Below are positions 30,603-36,600 of a DNA stretch of 64,000 bases, piece after piece (positions within the stretch are counted from its first letter, which is position 1; each line of letters starts with the position of its first letter). The DNA is taken from assembly GCA_965263295.1 (NCBI GenBank), contig OZ253665.1:864001-928000 (forward strand), written 5' to 3'. Source of the stretch: Spirochaetia bacterium (GTDB lineage: Bacteria; Spirochaetota; Spirochaetia; SP-2023). Made by a program: the position numbers.

Positions 30603-33600
30603 GCTGAGTTACTTTCGCTTTTTTTGCTTTTTATATGCGCGCTTTGCATCCCGCACCATTACCCGGCACTGCCAGCTAACTAAGCACGTATGCTACAAAA
30701 AAAAAACTTTTATGCAAGTACCTAAAGAAAAACTCCAGATTTTTTTGACAAAACTTCTGTTTATTCTATTAAATGAAGTTTTTTACCGGAGCGTTTTGAA
30801 CTCAAACCTTGAAATTTCGCCGAAACTCGCTATCCTGCCTGACTATGCTGGCTCCACACTCCGCACTTGAGTTAATCATCTACCCCCTGGAATGGCTAAT
30901 GAGCCAAATCTTCTGCGGTGCCTACCTAATGACAGGCGATCGCGGACTGAGTATTTTGCTCCTCAGCGCTGCAGTCAACACCCTGTTGCTGCCATTGTAT
31001 TCCCTGGGGGACAAAATTCAGCTGCGCGAGCAGGCCTTGCAGGCCAGTCTGCAGCCAAAATTGGATGAATTTCGCCGGGCCTTCAGCGGCAATATGTTGC
31101 ACATGGTGCAAAAGACACTATATCGCCAGCGCGGCTACCACCCAATTTATGCCTTGCGCGGAGGCCTCGGCTTCGCCATACAAGTCCCGTTTTTCATTGC
31201 CGCCTATCACTTCCTCAGTCACTTGGAGCTGCTGCAAGGCCAGAGCTGGGGCCCGATTATAGACCTGGGGCAACCCGACGGCCTACTGCCCTTACCCGCC
31301 GATTTAAGTGGCCCGGCGGGCCGCGGCAACCTGTTGCCCGTGCTCATGACAGCCCTCAATTTGCTCTCCGGGCTGGCCTACAGTGCGCAAAACCCATATG
31401 GCAGCACAGCTGCCGGGCGCCAATTCAGGCGCCAATTATGGGGCATCGCCATATTGTTCTTGATCTTGCTTTACCCAGCTCCCGCGGCCCTGCTGCTGTA
31501 CTGGTCTTTCAGCAATCTGTATTCGCTGGGCAAGAACCTGATCTCAGCCAGCCGCAAACAAGGCCGGGACTACTGGCAGAGGATCGCTCGCCGCGGTTGC
31601 GCAATCGGCCACCAGTTCTTCACCGCACTTTTAAAAATACGCTGGCTGCCTCTACTGGAATATGGCCTCGCCGTATTGGGCTTTTTCCTCTTGGCTCGCT
31701 TCAAGGTACTGGATTCCGTTGATGCCCAAGCCCAAAAAGCCCTATATTGGGGACGGATCTGTTGGTATGCCTTTGCATTTGTGCAGATACTTCGCCCGCT
31801 GGGGTCTCTTTGCCCTCCTAGGCTGTTTCCTGGGCGGACTGGGACCGGCACCGAAAAACCCGATGACGTGAAGATCCCACCCCGCCCGTTTGCCCGCCCT
31901 CCCGCCCAACTTCCCACCCGGCGCCATTCCGGGCTGCGCCGCCGTGTCGTGATTGCTGTCTGCCAATTAATGATCGTCATTGCTTCGCTGTGTATCCTGA
32001 GCTCATCTCTAAGTAGCAACCGGCGACTTGCCATATCCCTAGTCATCATCTCCCTGTCGCCCACACTGGCTTTTCTGCCGCGCCTTTGGCGCTGTAGGGC
32101 CTTTCAGCTGCTGAACGGCATCCACACCGCAAAAAGCCACACGAAAGGCCCACGCAAAACGCCAGACAAGAAGCCACTCAAGCTGATGCCGGGAGGCGCG
32201 ACAACGCAGTTGGCCGCAGCCAGCACAGCGGCCCTCTGTGGCCTGGGACTATTCAACAGCAGTGCCCTGCTCGCCTCCTCGCCGAGCGAAAGCCCCCAGG
32301 CCATTGCCGTATTGCTGCGCTATATCTTCCCCGGCTTTGGCATTTGCGCCATCGTCCTAGTTCTGTTCATTTTTATCCCATCCTTTCTGCCGTATTCCAT
32401 GCCGTATGCCGTTCTAAGGCGCCGCTGGCGCGGCCTGAATTTACAACTAGCCTATTTCGGCAGCGGCGCTCTATTGCTCGCCCTGTTTGACAACTTTGTC
32501 ATGCGGCACAATTACGGCGTCATGACCAGCTGGGTCTTCGATCAGCCAGAACGACTGATCATTCCCTTTGGCACCATTTGGCTTTGCCTGGCTTCCCTGC
32601 CCCTGCTCTACCTGCTGTGGCTCTTCCTACTCAGGCGTTTGCAAGTCCTGGTGCCGCTGTGCTGGATCCTGGCCGCCAGTCTGTGGCTCAGCTCCGCGCA
32701 CTACGCTTATAACCTGCGACAATTTCAGCGCGATGCCCAAACTCTCCCAGCTTCCCAAGTTTCTCCGGCAGCCCAAACAGACGCGTCCCAAAACTCGCGC
32801 CAGTTGCAAAGTGTCTTTTCGTACAGTAGCGATCAACCCAACGTAATTATTCTCATGCTGGATCGCTTCATCGGCCCCTATCTCGCCGACATTCTGCAGC
32901 TGGACCCAGAACTTCGCGCAAGTTTGGACGGCTTTACCTGGTACAAAAATACACTGTCTCCCGGCCCCTACACGATTTCTGGCCTGACCGCCCTGCTCGG
33001 AGGCCACGAGTACAGCCCGGACGGCATTGCGCGGCTTGAGGGCAGCTTGAAGGAAAAGATCAACCAGGCCTATCTCCTCTTGCCGACATTGTTCCGGCAA
33101 AATGGCTTTGAGAGTACCGTCGCCGATCCCAGCTGGGCCAATTTTGACTGGAAGGGCGACCTGGAGCTTTTCCGCCGCAACGGCATTCGCGCCGAGCGCC
33201 TGAAAGGCCGCTACACCGGGCAGTGGCTGCGCCGCAGCCAAGAGTCCCGCGCCGCTTTAAGTGCCTCTCGCACCGAGCCCGCCGGCCAGACCAACCAAGA
33301 AACCCAAGAAACCCAGCTGGGGGGCGCCCAAGGCCAAGGGCCACAACCCAAATACGCGGCCATAATGCTGTTACAGGCCGTGTTTCGGGCGTTGCCCGCG
33401 CCGCTGGCGCCATTGATTTACGACAACGGCTCGTGGCTCGGCAATAACTTTGCGGCCGGCAATATGTTTCTCGACCTGGTCAATGCCTGGGCCGGCCTAG
33501 TGGAACTGCCGCAAATCAGCGACGCCCAGGCGACAAAGCCGCAGTTTGTGTTCATGACCAACGACACTCCCCACGAACCGATGCTCATGGGGTATCGCGC

Positions 33601-36600
33601 TGGCGATCCGCGCTTTCCCTTTCAGCCGATGCTGCAAACTGAGGTGCCCGGCCCGAGCAATAGCCCGCTGCCACCCGAACTGCTGCGCGAATTGCTGGGC
33701 CCCAACAATAGCGACTATTCGTTGCGCCACTTCTATGCGGATTGGGCAACTTTGAAGGAACTGCGCCACTACTTCAAATGGATGCGCCAAAACGGCGTCT
33801 ACGACAATAGCCTGATTATTCTTATCTCGGATCACGGCCGCGACGTGCGCCTGCCCAGCATGGACCTAGGCCCCAAGGAAAGCAACTACGCTTATTTCAT
33901 GCCCCTCTTGATGGTTAAATTGCCCCACGCGCAAGGCCCCGTGCAAAGCGACTTGAGTCCCCATAGTAGCGCCGATGTCCCCTACTTTGCCAGCCTGGTC
34001 TTGCCGCCGGAGCAACGCCGCAACCCGTTTACCGGCAAAGCACTAGAACAGCAAAATCCACAGGATCCGCGCCATGCCTATTACATCGACTCAAACCCCG
34101 CCAGCCAAAAAGCCGACCGCTTCAATAAAGAGCGCAGCTACCGCATCACGGGTCCACTCTGGGAGACCGCATCTTGGCAGGAAATACGTTAATCCAGAAC
34201 TTCTGACCTTCGCGCCCCATTTTCTTCTTTCCCCTGGCACCCGCAGCTCCCGTCGTCCTTCGGCCCCTTTTTTAACCTTTTCCTACCCCCCACAGCTCCC
34301 CAGCCTAAATTTTGTGCCTTTTCGCCACCTTTCGTGTACTTTCGTGGTTCCCTTTAAGAGTCCTCACCGCCAAAGATGTATTGCCATACGATATTAATCT
34401 GACTAAGATAGCGTCATTGGAGGACACATGGATACCCTGGATGAAGTGAGGGAAATCCTCAAAAAGATCGGCATTTCTCAGGCTAAAACCGATGCACAAC
34501 TTGCTAAATCCCAAGCGGAAAACGATAAACAGATGGCGGTTCTACGCGAAGGTCTGGCCGAATTGCGCAGGTCGCAAGAAAAAACCGATGCGCAGATGGC
34601 GAAAACCGATGCGCGGCTGGAAAAAGTGGCCAAAATATTAGGCAATATTGGCATCAGCAACGGTGATTTTGCCGAGGAACTGTTTTTCAACAGTCTCTAC
34701 GCAAATCCGTTTCTCGGTGGGCTGCGCTATGAGAGCGTGGAGCGCAATGTGTCCAACCGCCGTAGGCATCGCGACCAGGGGGAATACGACATCGTGATGT
34801 GCAATGGCGATACCGTGGCCCTGATTGAGGTGAAGTACAAGGCACACAGCAACGACATTGCTAAGCTGCTCAAAAACGAGCCACAAAGTTTTCGTAAGAC
34901 TTTCACCGAATACCGGGACTACAAATTTTACCTGGGGCTAGCGTCCACGGTGACTTACGACAAGCTGATTACAGAGGCACGGGAAGCGGGTATTTTTCTC
35001 TTGACCCAGAGAGGCCAGCACATTGAAGTCGTGAATGAGGAAGTGCACAGCTTCTGATCACGGCCCCCCTAACAGTCCCTGGCCGAGTAATCATCTAATT
35101 ATTTTCCAAAAAATCCTTTAGTTCACTTAAAAACTTAATTAAGCAGTATGTTTCAAACCATGCAATACGTTCAAAATTGAGTGTAAAGGTTGAGAAACCA
35201 TTCTCTTTTAAAGCCCCAATACTTAAAATTAAACTCTTTTTATTTAAAATATTAACGTTCGGAAAAACGCTTGTAAGAATTGTGTTAGAAAAATTGTTTA
35301 TTCCCAATTCCCACTTAATAAATGGTTTCTCAGGTAAATTTTGAAAATGGTCTTTGCGTGCTTGCCGGAATTGTTCTTTGGATAAAATATGTAATTTGTC
35401 TGGAGTGGAAACGTCAATCCCTAAGGGCATATTTTTAGAAAATTCATTCCCTTCACAAAAATCAATAATTTTGTTTGTTAGATTTTTAGTGTCCTTTAAT
35501 TTAATCTCAGTTTCAAAGAACGAAAATATCCTGTTTGAATTAATCGTTTTAAACACCCATTTCCCTATACTCATTATTTATATTCCTTTCTCGTTATATA
35601 TGGAGTATTGTTTGATAATTTTTATAATATATTTTTTTTATTTATTTGCAAAGTCTATGAATAATTTTTTAATCTATTTGATGATTATGAATATCATATA
35701 TAGATAATATTTATCTTCTATTACTAAAATTATTAGACTATCATATTGGCCATAAACAACAATATTTTTTATTTTAAAGTTTTATTTATTGTATATATTA
35801 GTTTAAATCTATTTATAAATACTATAAGAAACAAAAAATATCTTAAAATGCCGCGTCCACCGCCTGAACGCCATCCGTCATGTCTCCCATGGCCCCTTGT
35901 CTATATTTCGTGGATTTCATAGCTTTTGTGGTTGCCCGCGCTTACGTCACGCAGTTGGCAAAGAGTTTGGCAATGAGAGGGCATCGCCAGGATTATTACT
36001 TCAATACAGTCGGCCGTTCGTAGACCAGTCGGCGCACAATCTGTGCGGCATTGGCTGCCGCCAAAGGCAAATATTGCTGGAAGTCAATTTTCCCGTCCGG
36101 GCGCAGAGGAAAGTCGGAAATGGAACGCACAATCAGGCACGGGCAGCCATAAATAAATGCGATGTGGGCAATTGCCGCAGCCTCCATATCCACCGCTTTG
36201 GCCTGCGGAAAGTGTTGGCGAATTGTCGCCAACTGCCGGCTGCCGTGCCCGACAAAAGAGTCACCGCTGACAATTTGCCCGGTTGTGGCCCGGTTCTTGG
36301 TTTGAGTTTGGCCGGCAAAGTATTCGCCGGCCACTTTCTCGGCCAACTGGCGCAGCTGCAAGCTCGTGGGATAATGTTCGGGGCAGCCCGGCAGCTGGCC
36401 ATAACCGTAACCAAAGGTACGAACATCGACATCACAGTAGGCCAAAGTGTCCGCAATGACAACGTCACCGTGACGGCCATCACCCATCAGGCCACCCGCC
36501 ACGCCGATATTGACAATGTAGTCCACATCGTGACGCTGCAAAAGCAAACCCGTGTGCAGTGCCGCCTGGGCCTTGCCCACTCCAGATTGCAACGCGACAA

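Follow-up and report, generated by a model that had tools for sequence, protein, structure and literature searches.

What does a protein do that joins an insertase fold to an enzyme of the alkaline-phosphatase (AP) superfamily? The question is raised by a gene in the window analysed here, a 64,000-nucleotide stretch of contig OZ253665.1 (assembly GCA_965263295.1) from a Spirochaetia bacterium, whose product combines a YidC core, about nine extra membrane helices and an AP-fold domain (Table 1). Together with a Tyr-bearing membrane peptide and a TagF-like enzyme, this fusion probably forms an unstudied relay that moves a small phosphorus-linked group to the envelope. A preliminary description had placed YidC and AP-fold parts in one frame, which is confirmed by contigs spanning the 1,115-aa open frame and by two Pfam matches above cut-off, 60KD_IMP (PF02096) at residues 34-233 (E 4e-19) and Sulfatase at 665-1003 (E 4.9e-8). 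Of the possible starts, TTG 30809 gives the longest frame and ATG 30899 the 1,097-aa form found in the database; ATG 30845 agrees with the N-terminus of the fusion family. The gene is not an assembly chimera, because single contigs from two runs cover all of it, one (X1, possibly the source sample itself) with 0 differences; the other (X3) differs by 35 substitutions and by an insertion of 9 bases that keeps the frame. A paralogue at contig positions 950665-953916 aligns in both parts, exactly as first given (37% identity over 289 aa and 25% over 480 aa), and a housekeeping YidC is also encoded (2283366-2285660). A Foldseek search with the AF2 model reproduced 6xlp and 6v8q as best PDB matches and also retrieved the B. 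halodurans YidC, 3wo7.

Table 1. Features of the fusion gene in window coordinates, with residues numbered in the 1,115-aa form
Feature	Position	Strand	Evidence
Whole fusion gene (P0001), 1,115 aa	30845..34192	+	open frame from ATG 30845; single contigs, two runs
YidC/Oxa1 core, residues ~7-239	30863..31561	+	PF02096; AF2; 3wo7 match
N45, at the groove Arg position (E. coli R366)	30977..30979	+	alignment to 3wvf and 3wo7
K230, cytoplasmic end of TM5, aligned with E. coli Q527	31532..31534	+	conservation
Variable linker, residues 241-445	31565..32179	+	low pLDDT; hydropathy
Five-helix membrane block, LtaS/EptA/PbgA type, residues 446-633	32180..32743	+	AF2 helices
Alkaline-phosphatase-superfamily domain (D673, T710, H910, D996, H997)	32828..34189	+	Pfam, conservation, structure match

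By fold, the YidC module belongs to the YidC/Oxa1 superfamily. It shares with the YidC, Oxa1 and Alb3 structures (3wo7, 3wvf, 6al2) the EH1 helix, the cytoplasmic hairpin and five core helices (TM1 and TM2-TM5), lacks the N-terminal TM and the P1 domain, is modelled with pLDDT mostly of 80-94, and matches 3wo7 with an rmsd of 3.5 Å over 231 columns (TM-score 0.68 by target). It departs from them in being fused to, or encoded beside, an AP enzyme, in addition to the housekeeping copy, and in its groove, where the positive TM1 residue of housekeeping YidCs (R366/R73) gives way to N45. This position is N, S, T, Q, C or a gap in 343 of 345 homologues, a redundant set in which the paralogue (Phe) is one of the two others, and Arg or Lys occupies it in 6/6 housekeeping YidCs but 0/9 modules of the system. 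Position 230, by contrast, is Lys or Arg in all 345 of these redundant homologues and in 9/9 system modules, against Q, H, N or a gap in the six housekeeping proteins; other groove positions carry Q113, Y219, W220 and N224. With 70.3 bits against a TIGR03592 cut-off of 84.3, and far below the cut-offs of all NCBIfam YidC equivalogs, the fusion appears not to be an ordinary insertase, in line with the earlier proposal.

Between this core and the AP domain lie a linker of about four membrane helices by hydropathy (about two in compact relatives), in which 9 of 15 codons changed between strains are non-synonymous, and a five-helix block that a profile search matches weakly with residues 27-310 of YejM (E 0.0016); 6xlp aligns over model residues 448-1115. 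In split systems the separate AP gene likewise starts with the five-helix block. As judged from structural matches of the model and from the site residues, the AP-fold domain has the fold, metal ligands and nucleophile that define its superfamily. The five site residues singled out earlier are indeed conserved (D673, T710, H910, D996 and H997 in 345, 344, 344, 344 and 344 of 345 full-length homologues, a redundant set) and follow the order acidic residue, Thr, His, Asp-His of the LtaS site E263/T307/H422/D481/H482 (PMC4192460), an equivalence by order and motif, not superposition, that places T710 at the nucleophile position. The domain looks like an active, outward-facing Thr-relay enzyme, in keeping with the periplasmic enzyme first envisaged; its presumed location is suggested by the number of helices and by an RR loop that precedes the last of them. 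With the five-helix block, outer AP domain and Thr nucleophile, the fusion would fit among the LtaS/EptA-type phosphoform transferases. LtaS/LtaP, EptA/EptC/MCR-1 and PbgA (YejM) share this block and fold (Z 19-21) at 10-15% identity. All of them lack the YidC module and the peptide-TagF partner, and no single one stands out as closest. A special kinship with PbgA, suggested earlier, is not borne out: PbgA comes first by Foldseek E-value but is tied by Z, its full-length rmsd is 17 Å, and phosphonate monoester hydrolases, sulfatases, EptC, LtaP and MCR-1 all lie with it within about 3 Z units as matches of the AP domain (Z 19-22, rmsd 3.4-4.7 Å over ~270-330 residues for the soluble part).

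Such fold comparison has no power to tell transferase from hydrolase. The domain might serve to strip off or recycle head groups, as a hydrolase of the phosphonate monoester hydrolase or phosphodiesterase type, given that phosphonate monoester hydrolases and choline sulfatase tie at the top structural Z (22.1-21.3) and sulfatases are the best AP matches of the fusion profile. Yet Thr at the nucleophile place and the five-helix block are transferase-like, and the fusion is coupled with activating and transferring enzymes, not with uptake or catabolism, so that we hold a hydrolase to be very improbable. Formylglycine sulfatases are marked by a Cys/Ser-x-Pro-x-Arg motif; this assignment was rejected, as the motif is absent, with Thr at 710 and neither Pro at +2 nor Arg at +4 among the commonest residues. 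The lack of this motif also counts against a hydrolase.

The coupled enzymes include one missed by the preliminary description, a TagF-like CDP-alcohol phosphotransferase bearing an N-terminal Y-[IL]-D-P-G membrane peptide. This partner was found in 51 of 75 fetched fusion loci, in 47 of those 51 at most 100 bases from the fusion, and the two genes are seen to overlap at loci. The notion of a self-contained enzyme acting on bulk membrane lipid is therefore not supported, since the fusion travels with the peptide-TagF partner and often with a cytidylyltransferase. Membership of PF04464 and two predicted catalytic His class the partner as TagF-like: its best solved relative is Cps3D (E 4e-8), and it keeps the APxW, RxH and SD motifs of TagF/TarL/Cps3D but scores far below TarF/TarL cut-offs and differs from these enzymes in its Tyr peptide and one membrane helix. 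H159 (53/53) and H277 (52/53) are read as catalytic from the roles of TagF H444 and H584 (PMC11666461), H159 matching H444 by position only (HxxH, not WHG, outside the aligned stretch). In the peptide, 53/53 sequences keep Tyr, Asp, Pro and the second Gly, with Thr and Ser varying, and the N-terminus takes two shapes, a short N-tail or a signal peptide followed by the helix.

The fusion family comprises at least 862 confirmed stretches in GTDB genomes and 2,395 clusters at E<=1e-30, among which may be some plain YidCs; a search with residues 620-1115 gave 750 matches, and 116 of the 120 matches listed carry PF02096. By title, the 75 fetched loci include 59 of Clostridia type, 14 from spirochaetes and one from Sutterella, to which that search adds an Atopobiaceae match, so that the family is not confined, as had been thought, to spirochaetes without lipid A. 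Neither LpxC nor LpxB was found in the present genome (92.6% complete). The family is common in gut Clostridia and spirochaetes and wrongly annotated as YidC, and the copy described here is one among hundreds, no special case. Among 301 sampled Spirochaetota genomes, which are kin, 63 encode the partner (E<=1e-30). Of these, 58 also have the fusion domain (E<=1e-40), which was found in no sampled genome lacking the partner, and in the remaining five the YidC module is a separate gene of 224-238 aa adjoining it. In G082 and G146 the system is split into four adjacent genes, one each for the peptide, TagF, the YidC module and the AP enzyme, and next to them comes a nucleotidyltransferase. The latter occurs in 27/75 fusion loci (19 of the 39 of at least 19 kb) and a LicA-like kinase in 8/75. 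Genomes often hold several fusion copies served by a single partner gene, and a housekeeping YidC was present in 6/6 genomes checked. These arrangements bear on whether the annotation is essentially right and the module either an extra insertase of general use or a chaperone acting in cis on the large outer domain of the same protein. Its five core helices and hairpin are intact and named database entries are called YidC, but it falls below the NCBIfam YidC cut-offs beside a housekeeping copy, and ~480 residues would have to be translocated here, against a client norm of <30 (PMC8675477). The earlier caveat of an insertase acting in cis is weakened by the five genomes in which the module, as a separate gene, still stands beside the partner, and we consider both variants extremely unlikely.

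The observations, which cover anatomy, conserved residues, gene coupling and co-occurrence, split forms and donor genes, suggest a cell-surface decoration system of four modules in which the fusion would be the half that lies in the membrane and outside it. A cytidylyltransferase would make an activated head group, here most likely CMP-aminoethylphosphonate (CMP-AEP) and in relatives also CDP-choline or CDP-polyol; the cytoplasmic TagF-like enzyme, on a single membrane helix with the N-tail Y-[IL]-D-P-G-[TS]-G, would put it on a hydroxyl in this tail, most plausibly that of the invariant Tyr; the Arg-less YidC module, as a private peptide handler in physical contact with the tail, would pass the loaded tail outwards through its groove and let it slip back; and the AP-fold domain would take the group on T710 for transfer to a glycan or glycolipid in the periplasm or at the surface. 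In contrast to the LtaS/EptA group, the donor thus appears, from gene context, to be nucleotide-activated in the cytoplasm. That the first, second and fourth steps form a pathway for head-group decoration, however the membrane is crossed, we consider quite likely; the complete relay, with the YidC module handling the peptide as phospho-group carrier, is put forward tentatively and with less than even confidence. Tyr shuttles have a precedent in DltX and PatA (PMC12148441), and conservation and analogy with DltX-like shuttles make the peptide Tyr a candidate covalent carrier. The analogy with Dlt (DltB-DltX-DltD) and PatAB is functional only, extending to a membrane conduit, a Tyr-bearing microprotein and an outer Ser/Thr enzyme; their acyl chemistry, MBOAT and SGNH folds and C-terminal FxYxxF motif are different, with no homology.

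Several points count against the relay. Ala precedes Tyr in 41 of 58 stand-alone peptides (31 also with Ala at -3), which suggests that signal peptidase cuts there on the outside. The TagF site, however, is cytoplasmic, and turnover would therefore need retro-translocation of the tail. We know of no report of such a movement, and the known TagF acceptors are sugars and polyols, not Tyr. Position 527 is also outside the six positions reported to replace R73 (PMC6827917). Retro-translocation would be unnecessary if, close to what was first proposed but with the partner added, the TagF-like enzyme loaded a lipid carrier that the YidC groove flips and the AP domain uses in the way LtaS/EptA use PG/PE, with the peptide merely an anchor or adaptor. 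The layout matches that of three-part lipid-carrier systems such as GtrABC. E. coli YidC has lipid-scrambling activity in vitro (10.1101/2023.09.01.555937), the LtaS donor comes from lipid via a Thr intermediate (PMC4192460), the five-helix block is like that of lipid-using enzymes, and the YidC groove is remodelled. Left unexplained is an invariant extracytoplasmic Y-D-P-G, with a gene of its own and shared with kinase-methyltransferase systems; moreover, the housekeeping YidC could scramble already, no lipid product of the partner is known, and nothing here points to lipid instead of partner peptide. Passage by lipid we regard as unlikely, if still a serious contender. By any crossing route, the Oxa1 fold would be used in envelope chemistry, the co-option first proposed and kept as the best frame; our literature search found no paper on such use and no description of the fusion module.

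The YidC module could, instead, merely insert or hold the partner helix and build the complex, the group crossing otherwise. Both N-terminal shapes of the partner are those of classic YidC clients, and R366N is tolerated, YidC staying active, if residue 517 is aromatic (PMC8920935); W220 occupies that place, which counts for the relay as well, and loss of the groove Arg alone is therefore no proof of inactivity. Gene overlap, too, suggests co-translational assembly. Nevertheless, the housekeeping YidC should manage such a client and seems to do so with NoeA-type peptides, several fusion copies per partner gene would be odd for a single insertion task, and no alternative crossing route is visible in fusion loci, which leaves this role rather improbable.

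The same peptide also occurs without YidC. Among 32 metagenome loci of the stand-alone form, 20 have a NoeA-like protein and 12 an AP/NPP enzyme, and on S. meliloti pSymA the peptide lies between nodL and noeA-noeB. NoeA is a kinase-methyltransferase and NoeB has the AP fold according to PMC9758233, section 8 of which describes neither the peptide motif nor any chemistry. The methyltransferase half of NoeA has WbdD as best, weak solved match (E 0.004), and NoeB aligns weakly with the fusion (probability 3%, E 0.015), with the five site residues in line. The nodL-noeA-noeB set and its Legionella counterpart share with the fusion system a Y-[IL]-D-P-G microprotein, a cytoplasmic phospho-group enzyme and a membrane AP-fold enzyme, with a kinase-methyltransferase in place of TagF and no private YidC. 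That two unrelated enzymes, each of which could form a phosphodiester, go with a common peptide and a common type of outer enzyme speaks for the relay. A private YidC is not required by every peptide system, because a YidC neighbour occurs in 1/32 loci, where it retains its Arg, and no YidC gene lies within the stretch shown of the S. meliloti operon. It is possible, though on the doubtful side, that Y-[IL]-D-P-G microproteins are a broad covalent-carrier class for phosphodiester or phosphonate head groups, whose TagF branch evolved a tail-cycling, Arg-less YidC. If so, they would account for the part of phosphonoglycan synthesis that follows CMP-AEP, left open in a study whose main text mentions none of TagF, sulfatase, insertase and YidC (PMC6697681), give a chemistry to the noeA-noeB host-range genes, and present an insertase turned small-group transporter. 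The fusion module offers a direct test of the path by which, in organisms that use it, activated aminoethylphosphonate or phosphocholine gets to surface glycans, and of the role of noeA-noeB.

In this genome both peptide motifs found sit on TagF-like proteins, and a NoeA/NoeB cassette was rejected, there being no kinase-methyltransferase among recurring fusion neighbours either, though no search of the genome aimed at NoeA itself was made. LicA/LicC-like and Ppm/Ppd/PntC-like genes of the Lic and Pnt pathways, found by the fusion in relatives, are scattered here, and the two partner copies are unlinked to the fusion; their pairing and the AEP donor are therefore proposed from presence in one genome. 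A choline kinase was looked for in it and not found. Ppm and Ppd score over cut-off, and a cytidylyltransferase fused to an AEP-transaminase-like domain scores under it, genes that make aminoethylphosphonate the likely cargo.

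As the preliminary description held, P0001 joins a YidC core and an alkaline-phosphatase (AP) superfamily enzyme in one protein, a single frame of 1,115 aa in which 60KD_IMP (residues 34-233) and Sulfatase (665-1003) both match above the Pfam cut-off; the genome also has, as described, a separate normal YidC and a paralogue, P0122, sharing 37% identity with the fusion over 289 aa and 25% over 480 aa. In the AF2 model (mean pLDDT 77.7, alignment of 42 sequences) the YidC core spans 7-239 and is followed by a linker of poor model quality; a five-helix block occupies 446-633 and the AP-fold domain 662-1115. 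We infer that the AP domain lies outside the cytoplasm because 5+4+5 helices are counted, with an RR loop preceding the last one. The likeness to PbgA proposed earlier stood only in part: PbgA takes the top Foldseek rank for the model, but by Z score the AP domain is tied among several AP-fold families (phosphonate monoester hydrolases 22.1, choline sulfatase 21.8, PbgA 21.0, and, counted as tied with these, EptC 20.1, LtaP 19.8 and MCR-1 19.0), and PbgA superposed on both parts of the model gives an rmsd of 17 Å. The formylglycine motif is absent from the AP domain. Conservation of the site residues is borne out: of 345 full-length homologues, 344-345 retain each of D673, T710, H910, D996 and H997, whose order along the sequence is that of E263, T307, H422, D481 and H482 in LtaS (PMC4192460). 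Hydrolases stand among the tied families and the site follows the LtaS order; that the AP domain is itself a hydrolase we rate as very improbable.

Single contigs from two runs span the whole gene, one with 35 substitutions, and among the runs listed as carrying the gene none is of RNA; the 32 listed in-frame ones (28 codons) amount to synonymous/non-synonymous codon changes of 1/0 in the YidC part, 4/1 in the AP part, 6/9 in the linker and 3/4 in the five-helix block. The gene is solitary, lying between a divergent tRNA gene and an unrelated repeat-rich gene. Over about 34120-35130 contigs align at a depth 10-25 times higher than over the fusion gene and joints are numerous, which suggests that the downstream gene is a member of a multi-copy family.

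Coordinates of the fusion gene, its neighbours and the related genes discussed in the text
Feature	Position	Strand	Remark
Fusion gene (P0001)	window 30845-34192	+	stop-free
tRNA-Gly	window 30545-30618	-	226 bases upstream of fusion
Coiled-coil + PD-(D/E)XK-like gene	window 34428-35057	+	Pfam matches all sub-cut-off
Paralogue P0122	L001:5666-8917	-	
Partner copy 1	contig 1080126-1081586		motif present
Partner copy 2	contig 1183262-1184629		motif present
Phosphonate genes of this genome, two distant loci	L220:8232-9530, L221:7310-10049		none adjoins fusions or partners
71-aa peptide gene U8C43_04900	pSymA CP140953, L222:3754-3969		between nodL and noeA
Peptide + 661-aa protein	L102:2182-4411, L122:5932-8183		
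484-aa YidC	L140:5763-7217		

The YidC module has been remodelled in its groove. N45, which aligns with R366 of E. coli, belongs to a column that among 345 homologues holds Asn in 290, Ser in 25, Thr in 18, Gln in 6, Cys in 2 and a gap in 2 (the remaining two fall outside these listed classes), and the column of K230, at the place of Q527, shows Lys or Arg without exception in the 345. Across six genomes, the housekeeping YidCs have Arg/Lys in TM1 (6/6) and never at the end of TM5 (0/6), whereas all nine modules of the kind studied here show the opposite pattern, with the charge at the TM5 end and none in TM1. R366N is reported to be functional with an aromatic residue at 517 (PMC8920935), and the groove charge can be moved to six listed positions, 527 not being one of them (PMC6827917). 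Since W220 of the fusion occupies the position of aromatic 517, loss of the Arg need not end insertion; that the module is simply an ordinary YidC is scarcely credible. A SpoIIIJ Q238K allele, considered as a counterpart of K230, was dropped, with 0 occurrences in the literature text. In P0122 the AP site is intact and the groove more diverged (Phe at the Arg position, Arg replacing the conserved Gln197, Thr replacing Glu482), and the paralogue may serve a different cargo or the other partner copy.

Neighbour clustering placed a partner gene in 51 of 75 loci, at most 100 bases from the fusion in 47. The partner is TagF-like (PF04464; Cps3D match, E 4e-8), with Y-I-D-P-G-T-G-S and a single membrane helix ahead of the TagF-like part; in 53 copies picked on whole-protein similarity, the Tyr, Asp, Pro and second Gly of this peptide are invariant, as is H159 (53/53; H277, 52/53). 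Less frequent neighbours are a nucleotidyltransferase (27/75), a LicA-like kinase (8/75), a choline-type transporter (6/75), Ppd (2) and Ppm (2). Of 301 Spirochaetota genomes, 58 contain the AP domain under a cut-off of E<=1e-40, with weaker matches in 7 others, and 63 contain the partner under E<=1e-30, with weaker matches in 6 others; every one of the 58 belongs to the 63, genomes that are kin and thus not independent. The other five partner genomes have a separate YidC module of 224-238 aa adjoining the partner. G082 and G146 encode the peptide, TagF, YidC module and AP enzyme as four neighbouring genes, with a nucleotidyltransferase next in line; phosphonate genes lie adjacent in G267, G193 and G258. 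A YidC module encoded by its own gene beside the partner argues that the module's job is tied to the partner and is not cis chaperoning of its own outer domain. An insertase serving assembly only we rate as unlikely. Pairwise identities of 52 fusion-partner pairs correlate at 0.88, a value uncorrected for kinship and set aside, and identity profiles and trees gave no unique matching of this genome's two fusions with its two partners. Complex prediction of P0001 (5-245 plus 446-1115) with the first partner's peptide, a guessed pairing run without controls, scored 0.01 in two runs and is given no weight in either direction.

The peptide also occurs outside YidC systems. A metagenome motif scan gave at least 118 loci; after removal of three non-membrane matches, those listed include 58 small stand-alone peptides, 41 with Ala immediately before the Tyr, and 54 fused or running off the contig. 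When short stand-alone peptides were sought by protein search, most matches proved to be pieces of the fused partner at contig ends. With profiles derived partly from those very loci, the 32 listed stand-alone loci of at least 1.4 kb gave 20 NoeA-like, 3 TagF-like, 12 AP/NPP and 1 YidC matches. NoeA was identified from plasmid records: S. meliloti pSymA has the order nodL, peptide gene, noeA, noeB, and the product of U8C43_04900 (signal peptide, Y-L-D-P-G-T-G-S, one helix) is the same peptide as the TagF partner's. In the Legionella counterpart cassette, Lani_1193 is, we presume, probably the peptide gene. NoeA-like proteins, compared as profiles with four LicA kinases, showed no match (probability 0.6%), and the Atlas result was a lead of 0.75 only; the kinase assignment comes from visible sequence motifs and from PMC9758233, which describes NoeA as a kinase-methyltransferase and NoeB as an AP fold and assigns no function. 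As the inner enzyme varies between CDP transferase and kinase-methyltransferase, peptide and outer AP enzyme form the constant core. In a third context the peptide directly precedes a 661-aa nucleotide pyrophosphatase/phosphodiesterase-family protein. Elsewhere a 484-aa YidC with the Arg kept and loop features like those of the system modules adjoins peptide and NoeA-like gene, a possible intermediate form.

Whatever the route, a decoration pathway is probable. Given that constant core, the simplest reading, which we hold tentatively, makes the peptide a carrier: the TagF-like enzyme would load a group onto it, the YidC module would move the short loaded tail, and T710 would unload the group. 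DltX and PatA likewise carry groups on Tyr, theirs being acyl (PMC12148441). Counting against a peptide carrier are the retro-translocation it requires and NoeA systems without a private YidC. Passage of the head group on a lipid through the YidC module would accord with LtaS chemistry and with lipid scrambling by YidC (10.1101/2023.09.01.555937) but leaves the peptide unexplained, and we consider it doubtful.

Both partner copies in this genome are unlinked to either fusion gene. Two products exceed NCBIfam cut-offs: Ppd, and a Ppm joined to a cytidylyltransferase. Another cytidylyltransferase, this one joined to an AEP-transaminase-like domain, scores below its cut-off, and no choline kinase was found in this genome; the likeliest donor here would be CMP-AEP. 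Activation of this type is demonstrated in PMC6697681, which leaves the subsequent steps open and has unlabelled genes in Fig. 3c.

Residues 620-1115 retrieved 750 protein matches, 116 of the 120 listed also carrying PF02096, and a GTDB genome scan gave at least 862 confirmed stretches, so that this gene is one member among hundreds. LpxC and LpxB were not found in this genome; restriction of the family to spirochaetes without lipid A is, however, unsupported, since record titles of the best 75 loci are dominated by Clostridia-type names (59, against 14 spirochaetes, 1 Sutterella and 1 without name), and the family is tied neither to spirochaetes nor to lipid A loss. Plasmid records yielded no fusion. 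Split forms were identified through searches of genomes; a search for unfused AP domains scored 8,000 candidates and gave 6 matches, a number too small for counting. In openly readable full text, a scope outside which subscription papers and supplements lie, neither the fusion nor the peptide motif was found described, motif searches bringing up one unrelated entry each; no described pathway matches the system, whose parts are known folds and whose mechanism is a proposal only. Relatives often have tandem arrays of 3-7 fusion genes or fragments per single partner gene (L077, L206, L205, L034), some copies frameshifted, as if acceptor specificity were diversifying.
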